Virus record (IMG/VR): IMGVR_UViG_2537562194_000037
Span: 1 to 6,595 of that record
Origin: a virus
Taxonomy: Duplodnaviria; Heunggongvirae; Uroviricota; Caudoviricetes
Reading direction: 5' to 3' (one strand)
DNA length: 6,595 nt
Part shown: one piece after another, positions 3,001 to 6,000 of the stretch
Layout of the letters: every line of letters begins with the position of its first letter
Numbering within the stretch: position 1 is the stretch's first letter
Position numbers: made by a program

Positions 3001-6000
3001 ATTGTCAAGAAAGACGGCAGAAAGTGCAGCCGGTAATGCAGCCAGGGATGCAACGACCGCAACAGAAAAAGCCCGGGAGTCAGCAGAAAGCGCACAGTCA
3101 GCGGAACAAAGCAGGATAGCGGCGGAAGAGGCCGTAAACCGAATCCCCACCGTGGTGGGACCTCCCGGGCCAAAGGGGGAACAGGGGCCCGCGGGTCCTC
3201 AGGGGCCGAAGGGTGATAAGGGAGAGCGCGGTGACACCGGCCCTGTCGGGGCAACCGGACCTCAGGGGCCGAAGGGCGACCCGGGGGAGACGCAAATACG
3301 GTTCCGTCTGGGGCCGGGAAACATTATTGAGACAAACAGCAATGGCTGGTTCCCGGATACAGATGGTGCGCTCATCACCGGACTGACCTTTCTTGACCCC
3401 AAAGATGCCACACAGGTTCAGGGGCTGTTTCAGCATTTGCAGGTCAGGTTTGGTGACGGGCCGTGGCAGGATGTTAAGGGGCTGAATGAAGTGGGCAGTG
3501 ATACAGGCAGAACAGGAGAATGACATGAATATACTAAAAAAACTTATGCAGCGTCTGTGTGGTTGCGGAAAGCATGATGGCCGTGAACACGTGCAGTCGC
3601 TTACAGCACAACTGCGACTGGGGCCGGCAGACATCCTGGAGTCCGATGAGAATGGTATTATTCCGGAGCAGGACAGGGTAATCACGCAGGTGGTGATACT
3701 GGATGCGGATAAAAAGCAGATACAGTGCGTGGTAAGACCGCTGCAAATTCTGCGTGCTGACGGGAGGTGGGAAAATATTGGCGGAATGAAATAGCCGACA
3801 GCTTCACAAAAACCGGAGTCCGGCTCCGGTTTTTGTTGTCATGTCCGGTGGATGTTTGTTAGGAATGTTCAGACAGGTTTATTTTGAATTTACACAGAAT
3901 CCTAAACAGGTTCGAAAATTAAGAAAGAGGTTGTATGTTTAGCATAAGAACCCTACTACCTATTAGCGCCAGCGTATCAGTTCCGACAAAACAATCTCAA
4001 TCCATCCCAATAACTTTAGCAGGGAGAACAATCGAAAAAGCGCAAGAGAAAGAAGGATTACTTGTTTTTTTAGGAATGAAATCCGTTAATGACTATACTC
4101 TTAATATTCTTGGCCAAAATGTTTCAAGAGTCACAACGGGGAAAAAACCGTATGATTTATTATTCCTGAATGATGCTACAAAACAAGATTTTGATAAAAG
4201 GAAAATGGAGTTTACATATCCTGGAGCAAATAAAAGCCATCTACAATCAAGTAATAGCGATGTTGTTGCTGCTGCAGCTATAAGTATTACAGCGACAGAG
4301 ATGAAAACCATCCTGCCAGATGATTTAACACTAGGAAAATACAACAAAATTTATCTGTCTGGGCATGGTTCTGCTGGTCTACCTCTTCTTAAGTGCGGAG
4401 ATGAATTTTTATCACCGTCAGATATTGTCGACCGCATTGTTCAGCATAATCTTCATGAAATAGATGATATCAGATTAACATCCTGTAACTCAGCCAACAT
4501 AATAAAAAACAAAGACTTCTCTCCTGATGAAATAGAAAAATCCGCAAATATGAATAACGGCTGGTTGGCCAGGGCATTATTTGGTCAAAAGAGGTCTTTA
4601 GCAGAACACGTCTATGCCGAGTTTGAACGTCGCGGAATTAACGTTTCTATATCAGGTTACCATGGCACTGGCGTTTTTTATGTACCAGAGCATGGTAAAC
4701 CAACAACGCATCTACGCTCCACAACTGTGCCTGCAACACCTGAACATACTGTAAGAAGAAGCGACTACAGAGCCACTTTGGGTAGAACTCAACCCATAGA
4801 TATTGAGTAATTGAGCCAGCATATACACTTGATGGTTAGGAAACAGAATCATTGTTTTAAACATTTCCTGGCCATTAATATTGTCGGCGGGAGCATATCC
4901 AGGACTGGTCGGCAAACCGGGTACGCGATCTGTTGCCATGGAAAGTTGATCTGAGCGCTCAGTAAATATCAATACGGTTCTGGCGAGCCGCTTACGATGC
5001 ATGAGAATCACTAATAGTATGTAATTATTACATTTTATTTACAATGCTGTTTCTGTTGGTCTGCATCCATAATTATGAAATGCTGACTTATGGTGTCAAA
5101 ATAACACATATTCCTTTCAATAATCATTTCTTTTACTATCTTTTCCCTGCTGAGAGGGTGGGGTAGATGTTCTCTTGTGAGATTCATGAACGCAGACTTA
5201 TCATAAAGAGTGCATATGTTGGAGTTCAGTGCGTTCTTGACAAAAACCCCTTTTTCTGGAACGCATAATGTTATTGGGCACTTAAGAAATTGTGTGTCGC
5301 AAGAGAATTCATCAGGATTTACAACAAATGAATGAGAATGGATTTTATTTTTAAGGGCGTTTTCGGCCCCTTTTTTCCATCCTATATTTGAAGATAATTG
5401 AAGCATAAAATCCTGAGATATTTGTGCAAAACTTCGTCCGTTGTTGATCTGCTGTTCCAGGTTGCGAGCAATAGTGTTTTGTCTCGCCATAAATATGGAG
5501 AAATGATTACTGCATACAGGATTTACTGTAAAACCATTGACTGATTCGATATAACGGATATCCATTTTATAACGTTCTTTTATGATTACAGTATCATTTT
5601 GATTTTGCTGCACAATATAACGTAAAGATGCTAGCTCATTCTCAGGTAAGATACTGCCTGCTGTGAAGTTTAAAAATATAGGCATGTTTTTTTCTGTAAT
5701 ACAAGTCGATTGTTTGTGATTTCGCGCTGTAGGTATATTATCATTCATATTTAACTTCCTAAAGTATGACCTCGTAGGGAGATAAATGCAATACTTAAAG
5801 GTAGATTGAAATGATAAATTAGCGTTTGGTAAATCCAGAATTTCATAAAGAGAGAGGTGGTGTTTTTTCATAGCGCTGAGATGTAAGTTGCAACATGTAT
5901 TATATGCAAGAGAATAGGGAGTACTGGATACATTAACTCTATGTAATCCATTCAAGATATTAATGCAATTGAAATAATTGACATAAAATATTGCATAGGT

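Follow-up and report, generated by a model that had tools for sequence, protein, structure and literature searches.

The window analysed here is a stretch of 6,595 nucleotides (6.6 kb), positions 1 to 6,595 of the IMG/VR virus record IMGVR_UViG_2537562194_000037 (Caudoviricetes). It covers the right-hand end of a lambdoid prophage that is defective and of the type found in enterohaemorrhagic Escherichia coli (EHEC) and is 99.8% identical to the DNA next to ydfJ in strain 95NR1. Its central part carries stf, the gene of a collagen-like side tail fibre, directly followed by a small gene for a protein of 89 amino acids (aa), which is the subject of this study. Both proteins contain the domain Phage_fiber_C (PF06820, hereafter PfC); the copy at the end of the fibre is referred to as PfC-L and the copy in the small protein as PfC-S. 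The features of the stf-small unit are as follows (ORF, open reading frame).

2408..3523, plus strand: stf, gene of the collagen-like side tail fibre (371 aa when started at the RefSeq ATG; RefSeq WP_000268904.1)
3158..3292, plus strand: collagen triple-helix segment of 15 Gly-X-Y triplets (regular expression and translation, PF01391)
3296..3484, plus strand: PfC-L, the fibre C-terminal knob (IRFRLGP...WQDVKGL; PF06820, E 2.2e-34)
3485..3520, plus strand: C-terminal tail of Stf past PfC, 12 residues (NEVGSDTGRTGE); this DNA also holds the ribosome-binding site of the next gene
3514..3518, plus strand: Shine-Dalgarno sequence AGGAG, 6 nt 5' of the small-ORF ATG
3521..3527, plus strand: stop-start junction TGA-C-ATG (stf TGA 3521-3523, C 3524, ATG 3525)
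3525..3794, plus strand: small gene, 89 aa plus stop, stand-alone PfC protein (RefSeq WP_001023452.1; PHROG 576)
3525..3605, plus strand: N-terminal extension of the small protein, 27 aa, with a basic predicted helix (residues 3-12), an LCGCGK motif and a low-confidence linker
3606..3791, plus strand: PfC-S, residues 28-89 of the small protein (PF06820, E 1.1e-36)
3806..3836, plus strand: intrinsic-terminator hairpin ACAAAAACCGGAG-TCC-GGCTCCGGTTTTTGT, closing the stf-small unit

The fibre has the architecture known as EPclA, a PfN anchor followed by an Ala/Glu-rich coiled coil, collagen and PfC, with Pfam matches to PF08400 (E 9.5e-69), PF01391 and PF06820. Its start is given as the RefSeq ATG at 2408; the ORF listing begins at a GTG at 2402. 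The N-terminal 93 aa match the anchor domain of the Ur-lambda Stf (PDB 9e7m, E 6.6e-51). Collagen segments of other EPclA copies are listed at 27-144 residues and extend to lengths greater than here (Ghosh et al. 2012, PMC3368898, Tables 2-3). In the same work, recombinant PfC and Trx-PfC were trimers in size-exclusion chromatography coupled to multi-angle laser light scattering and nucleated the refolding of collagen, and recombinant EPclA formed trimers in E. coli in the absence of the small gene. The 12-residue tail NEVGSDTGRTGE is conserved among PfC-L copies (alignments A2 and A3).

The small protein is a paralogue of the C-terminal domain of the fibre, as a preliminary description made from the DNA alone had proposed. 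BLASTP aligned it with Stf at 23/62 identities (37%) and 63% positives (E 2e-12). A control with shuffled sequences, which that description had named as a refuting test, left the similarity standing: the local alignment score was 108, compared with 23.2 +/- 4.2 (maximum 40) for 300 shuffles (z = 20). Both proteins match PF06820 over all 64 model positions, Stf with residues 299-362 (118.1 bits, E 2.2e-34) and the small protein with residues 28-89 (125.5 bits, E 1.1e-36), the curated gathering threshold of the family being 25 bits. The shared residue skeleton listed at the outset corresponds to the invariant columns of alignment A1 (G33, P34, I37, N43, G44, P47, I53, T54, L59, D60, L73, Q74, D79, G80 and W82), and the start of the 89-aa ORF had been placed correctly, 1 nt past the stf stop codon. 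At the DNA level PfC-L and PfC-S are 53% identical, third codon positions 43%, and their longest exact run is the 10 nt CTGGGGCCGG of the RLGP motif; the duplication is therefore old rather than recent. Judged by its sequence, the small protein copies the PfC trimerisation knob in free-standing form, with an extension of 19-27 residues in front.

The spacing TGA-C-ATG is that of translational coupling and is identical in phage phi24B, where the fibre ends at 40027 and the small ORF starts at 40029. The junction was present in 71/71 fetched loci with stf directly upstream, reading AGGAGAATGAcATG in 69 and AGGAGAGTGAcATG in 2 of them, and a record of the lambda h434 imm21 hybrid annotates a ribosome-binding site at the equivalent place. 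A fusion of fibre and small ORF by frameshifting is unsupported: the small-ORF frame is open only from 3486, the two frames overlap by 36 nt, no slippery heptamer (XXXYYYZ) occurs where both frames are open, and the sole homopolymer run is a GGGG at 3478. Mondal et al. (2016, PMC5155283) likewise found no frameshift signal fusing the small ORF to the fibre.

In the N-terminal extension, residues 11-16 (window 3555-3572) form the motif L-x-G-C-x-K, which reads LCGCGK in E. coli and LFGCDK in Salmonella and lies at the same distance from the start in both genera; it resembles a lipobox but has no signal peptide, and a metal site, a disulfide or docking are conceivable roles for it. The longer pattern M-x-I-x-K-K...L-x-G-C-x-K is retained in the 53%-identical Salmonella orthologue described below. 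A lipoprotein or exported protein of the Llp or Cor type was rejected despite the L-x-G-C at residues 11-14, since residues 1-13 (MNILKKLMQRLCG), read straight from the sequence, are basic and have no hydrophobic core.

Downstream, the fold of 3795-3850 has a free energy of -26.5 kcal/mol (z -4.8), and 0/200 shuffles were as stable. The first 55-72 nt 3' of the small ORF move with the module in long- and short-tailed Shiga toxin (Stx) phages, including 933W. A 67-nt pseudogene that RefSeq annotates in 95NR1 as 'tail assembly protein' (window about 3795-3861) overlies the terminator hairpin; it is treated here as an annotation artefact but may instead be what is left of a displaced tail-fibre assembly gene (tfa).

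The small gene occupies the tfa slot, the gene order being J-lom-stf-small-terminator, and its product is not a classical Tfa; on both counts the preliminary description was right. PF06820 and PHROG 576 are its only matches, the latter over the full length (residues 1-89 on profile positions 1-89 of 89, E 1.6e-59), and searches of Pfam, NCBIfam and PHROGs (E <= 0.01) returned no Tfa, Caudo_TAP or other chaperone family.

The region 3525-3794 is a genuine protein-coding gene, separately translated and selectively maintained. It was intact in 87/87 copies from the fetched loci. Among 60 distinct E. coli alleles the ratio of non-synonymous to synonymous polymorphism (pN/pS) was 0.13, with 0.09 for PfC-S and 0.30 for the first 27 codons; the other two frames of the same DNA gave 3.4 and 1.2, and the fibre's own PfC gave 0.26. 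Between E. coli and Salmonella, PfC-S has a non-synonymous divergence (dN) of 0.29 and a synonymous divergence (dS) of 1.22 (dN/dS 0.24). Expression is documented by the virion proteome supplement of a 2026 cryo-EM/proteomics preprint on phi24B, which lists two peptides unique to the small protein, ADGTWENIGGMK and VITQVVILDADKK. With 3 + 3 spectra against 2,267 for the fibre gp61 and 23 for Lom, all counts being lower bounds, the small protein ranks below Lom, which the authors treat as a contaminant. It goes unmentioned in the main text of the preprint; the search database holds a test fusion entry 'Spike or just gp59?'. The earlier suggestion of a tip-swapping event with the small ORF as its remnant fails as a whole explanation in view of the purifying selection, the conserved start and ribosome-binding site, the Salmonella orthologue and the peptides. 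A mere relic is excluded by the evidence of selection and expression.

An exhaustive HMMER scan of 1.84 billion representative proteins returned only 82 family members, among them an orthologue from Salmonella enterica of 79 aa with 53% identity. At its locus (L093) the upstream gene encodes a 212-aa fibre of non-collagen type whose last ~65 residues form a PfC-L-type domain, 40% identical to E. coli PfC-L. The 79-aa small gene overlaps the fibre end by 14 nt, lies behind an AGGAGG and is followed by a hairpin terminator and then by cargo of the NleG/SopA type. Identities are 53% for the S-S pair, 40% for L-L and 30-37% for S-L; hence the paralogues had split before the cassettes diverged and have been together since. 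The cassette has a collagenous shaft in phages of the long-tailed lambda type and of the short-tailed 933W/phi24B type, but a non-collagenous one in Salmonella. PfC-S is tied to the PfC-L knob and not to the collagen shaft or the tail type, which is the behaviour of a functional partner. The small gene is the last gene of a three-part mobile cassette made up of a PfC-L-ending fibre, PfC-S and a terminator.

Among 5,426 complete E. coli genomes, 698 carry PfC-S DNA (6,377 places in all) and 697 carry PfC-L DNA (6,159 places), each with a median of 10 per genome, so that PfC-S and the fibre gene co-occur at about 1:1. The small gene is present in 296 phage records, all of them Stx-converting or lambdoid. 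Long-tailed carriers include 1717, 2851, VT1-Sakai and the lambda h434 imm21 hybrid; in the short-tailed carriers 933W, phi24B, VT2-Sakai and Min27 it follows a longer EPclB-type fibre with the same 1-nt spacing. The arrangement, earlier held to be out of the ordinary, is what EHEC-type prophages and Stx phages show as a rule behind every fibre that ends in PfC. The protein of the window is 100% identical to the copies in phages 1717 and CP-1639. Word-indexed homologue searches returned only near-identical fragments from E. coli, E. albertii and Citrobacter rodentium, and the C. rodentium copy, a decayed remnant behind a truncated fibre, was left out of the evidence for constraint. A scan of GTDB genomes returned only an E. 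albertii contig and a 725-bp contig of a 'Xanthomonas pisi' assembly (L086, NZ_JPLE01000138.1), which encodes the small protein at 92% identity and is almost certainly E. coli contamination.

Nor had the gene escaped notice. RefSeq names its product 'phage tail fiber C-terminal domain-containing protein', the phi24B GenBank record notes 'phage fiber C superfamily ... RLGP motif', and 'tail fiber assembly chaperone' is its label in one record of lambda h434. In phage Sp5 it is ORF68, which Mondal et al. (2016, PMC5155283) classed as non-essential and suggested to be an intragenomic reservoir for fibre variation. The genes for Sp5 ORF68, phi24B 'gp59' (ADN68460) and Stx2-1717 gp76 are the same gene as that of the window, 92-100% identical, 89 aa long and with the same 1-nt spacing and downstream hairpin; the window copy differs by its setting only, a defective prophage with a truncated J and a shorter fibre with 15 collagen triplets. 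The small gene is not discussed in the Eligo preprint on Shiga toxin-producing E. coli, the Ur-lambda paper or the tail-spike review, and its locus tags gave no relevant literature match. The downstream gene is likewise undiscussed in Ghosh et al. (2012, PMC3368898), the text of which contains 'downstream' and 'chaperone' 0 times each. Small gene and homology are thus already catalogued, and the finding is a correct rediscovery, given that PHROG 576, the RefSeq name, the phi24B note and Mondal et al. (2016) predate it. New contributions of this study are the tests for selection, the pairing in Salmonella with its ancient co-inheritance with the knob and not the shaft, the recombinant fusions and the peptides drawn from another group's supplement.

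Fused forms of fibre and small-protein PfC, about which the preliminary description had asked, exist but are rare. In the O111 strain FWSEC0005 (L092) a deletion has removed PfC-L and the N-terminus of the small protein, so that the collagen runs into the small-type PfC, and the join is out of frame. A second locus (L087) shows the same join in frame (collagen-GERGP-ADILESDENG...), by way of a deletion between GGGACCGGCAG repeats, and a reciprocal chimera was found as well (P0183). The small-type PfC product of the L092 join (P0057) occurs in 31 contigs, and 4 sequences belong to the in-frame form (P0060), compared with thousands in the standard 89-aa clusters. The RLGP DNA CGnCTGGGnCCGG (window 3306-3318 and 3610-3622), read one base out of frame, resembles the collagen Gly-X-Y repeat (GAAGTG). 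The join of L092 (2740-2770) falls exactly at this DNA; in L087 (100-130) the frame is restored by the GGGACCGGCAG-repeat deletion.

The structure of the small protein was predicted with AlphaFold2 (AF2). A monomer model from a 12-sequence alignment that included the Salmonella orthologue reached a mean predicted local distance difference test score (pLDDT) of 73.8; an earlier model from 8 sequences (pLDDT 56) was set aside as too poor. The model consists of a helix at residues 3-12, a linker at 13-24 with pLDDT <50 and a six-stranded beta domain with block pLDDT values of 71-90 from residue 31. The top PDB match in Foldseek was 5yvq_A, from the Mu fibre-chaperone complex (probability 0.97). 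Five of the ten best matches in BFVD are named tail-fibre proteins, the rest being unnamed or otherwise named, and all are 175-727 aa long. These match scores are modest, the query being a monomer model of pLDDT 73.8. Searches of the PDB by sequence, with the protein and with the family profile, found no PfC structure. A protein of 565 aa from a Logan assembly (P0234) has four tandem PfC-like units separated by collagen linkers of two or three triplets and followed by a long collagen stretch; PfC-type units can hence be internal and serial and not only C-terminal.

Outside the stf-small unit, the window carries the following features.

1-570: antirepressor gene (P22_AR_N domain)
567-1676: C-terminal fragment of J, a RefSeq pseudogene with its N-terminus missing
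1744-2343: lom
3935-4810: gene for a type III secretion system effector of the Ibe family (291 aa; PHROG 6583, E 4e-206; no Pfam domain)
5035-5955, minus strand: nleG7 (PF06416)
6281-6595, minus strand: DinI-like gene at the window edge

The antirepressor ORF abuts the J fragment with a 4-nt overlap (window 1-1676), and the prophage is defective. Between lom and stf, a GC-rich hairpin with a T-run behind it (2370-2391) resembles a terminator; together with the downstream terminator it brackets the stf-small pair, which is presumably transcribed late under Q antitermination. Effector cargo (the Ibe-family gene and nleG7) sits 3' of the fibre cassette, and the Salmonella and Citrobacter copies of the cassette likewise precede effectors of the NleG or SopA type. 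Two antisense ORFs on the minus strand, 2631-3254 and 3098-3685 (207 and 195 aa), cross stf into the small gene and look like by-products of the Ala/Gly-rich repeat coding; the phi24B counterpart is annotated as a hypothetical protein (vb_24B_37c).

As to function, we tentatively favour, at somewhat less than an even chance, that the small protein is a dispensable, fibre-specific partner of PfC-L, an assembly or maturation helper in the tfa slot that acts mainly in the producing cell. It would be made late in infection together with the fibre by coupled translation, would probably form a trimer of its own and would act on the PfC-L knob in the producing cell in a manner functionally like Tfa. 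There it might improve the yield or the registration of the C-terminal trimer that nucleates the shaft, and it would be mostly missing from the finished virion. A more far-reaching proposal, which we consider unlikely, is that a free paralogue of a trimerisation knob constitutes an undescribed kind of assembly factor, one that would template or proof-read nucleation or transiently cap the knob and would have co-evolved since before the split of the E. coli and Salmonella cassettes, on collagenous and non-collagenous shafts.

Several points weigh against the helper reading. None of the fibre chaperones characterised so far is, to our knowledge, paralogous to the knob that it serves, Tfa, T4 gp38 and gp57A being unrelated in both sequence and fold. 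Sp5 with an in-frame deletion in ORF68 still infected K-12, whereas loss of the fibre gene ORF67 abolished infectivity (PMC5155283); any helper role is therefore dispensable in the laboratory. Recombinant EPclA, as mentioned, trimerises without the small protein (PMC3368898). An obligatory chaperone is excluded by this published work, since the Sp5 deletion is infectious and both EPclA and the isolated PfC trimerise alone, and the assembly-factor role raised in the preliminary description would be possible only in a dispensable version. The traces of peptide in virions might equally come from a structural component that is loosely bound or of low copy number, and the peptide counts are lower bounds. 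Finally, the AF2 monomer is moderately confident (pLDDT 73.8).

The peptides from gradient-purified phi24B virions lead to a doubtful but serious alternative, in which the small protein would be an accessory of the distal fibre, either low in copy number or loosely attached. A PfC-S trimer would dock by its N-terminal extension on PfC-L or on the 12-residue tail of the latter and would alter the binding of the side fibre, for instance to natural hosts that bear O-antigen, being largely lost in purification. The N-terminal motif common to E. coli and Salmonella is in line with this, as is the distant relative P0234, in which four PfC-like units follow one another on a single chain; the mature virions of Mu and Ur-lambda, moreover, retain their Tfa (PMC9608196). 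Non-essentiality on K-12 also fits a host-range factor. The side fibres of lambda itself are dispensable in the laboratory, and so the K-12 result is compatible with an accessory. Yet 6 spectra against 2,267 amount to ~2% of equimolar after length correction, below the contaminants named by the authors, and the preprint assigns the small protein no extra density, the fibre C-terminus being unresolved there. PfC-S has also evolved more slowly than PfC-L (dN 0.29 vs 0.55), and an outermost tip that binds receptors usually does the reverse. The alternative or decoy tip of the preliminary description persists in a reduced form: a stoichiometric tip fits poorly and is hard to reconcile with the phi24B proteome.

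A decoy that acts away from the particle is improbable. By analogy with Llp of phage T5, free PfC-S trimers released at lysis might occupy the ligand of the fibre on debris or neighbouring cells, which would spare progeny adsorption to no purpose or keep competitors out. The small protein is paralogous to the knob that presumably binds the ligand, is made late, is minor in the virion and is laboratory-dispensable, all of which would suit this role, and E. coli and Salmonella share the L-x-G-C of residues 11-14. However, residues 1-13 contain K5, K6 and R10 (K5, K6 and K8 in Salmonella), with no signal peptide and no hydrophobic core, so that export or lipidation is unlikely, and PfC-S, only 37% identical to PfC-L, does not track the faster divergence of the latter. 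We attach equally little probability to the reservoir of Mondal et al. (2016), according to which the small ORF is a spare tip cassette that replaces PfC-L. Recombinants of the expected kind exist (L092, L087 and the reciprocal chimera P0183), and the RLGP DNA motif offers 10 nt of microhomology. But the join in L092 is out of frame, the fused forms are rare (31 contigs and 4 members against thousands), and 53% DNA identity with runs of <=10 nt is far below what efficient homologous recombination needs. A silent cassette, furthermore, needs no ribosome-binding site, ATG or N-terminal extension, yet all are kept, even in Salmonella, and the small protein is translated in phi24B. Very improbable, and largely refuted by the selection tests, is the absence of any current function, with the small ORF as a hitch-hiking leftover of an ancestral fibre 3' end that stayed intact through the recent spread of the cassette. 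Its E. coli copies are 88-100% identical, and many are therefore young; the prophage of the window is itself defective, and deletion had no reported phenotype. Against this stand a pN/pS of 0.13 with frame controls above 1, a dN/dS of 0.24 at a dS of 1.2 across the E. coli-Salmonella split, the 87/87 intact copies and the conserved ribosome-binding site and N-terminal motif.

As a discovery the result is modest, gene and homology being catalogued. Genomes of EHEC-type E. coli carry the cassette ~10 times each, most Stx-converting phages have it too, and it is part of the adsorption apparatus of the phages that spread the Shiga toxin genes. The 2026 preprint on the phi24B structure lists the role of the conserved collagen-like side fibres as an open question. 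The role of the PfC companion would help to explain how Stx phages reach natural hosts that bear O-antigen and would be useful for grafting these fibres onto engineered delivery particles.

Among known systems, the small protein is most readily compared with the Tfa proteins (Caudo_TAP) of lambda, Mu and P2. Similar to these, it is small, is encoded directly after the fibre and is co-inherited with the C-terminal end of the fibre. In contrast, Tfa is not a paralogue of the fibre tip and has no sequence or family match with the small protein. Fibre assembly needs Tfa, but Sp5 can do without ORF68, and Tfa of Mu and Ur-lambda remains on the virion (PMC9608196), whereas the small protein is found at trace level in virions of phi24B. 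A second comparison is with the PfC of EPclA and EPclB (Ghosh et al. 2012), which belongs to the same Pfam family and is a beta-rich, trimerising and collagen-nucleating knob of ~64 residues. There, PfC is the covalent C-terminus of a fibre of 370-680 aa; the small protein, in contrast, is separate and has an N-terminal extension of its own. The same distinction applies to the distal domains of Mu gpS (PDB 8ju3 and 5yvq), T7-like and other BFVD fibres, where the matches are domains inside proteins of 175-727 aa, unlike the free polypeptide described here. On the strength of the predicted model, PfC looks like a widespread module of fibre ends, and its occurrence as a free polypeptide would be the unusual point.

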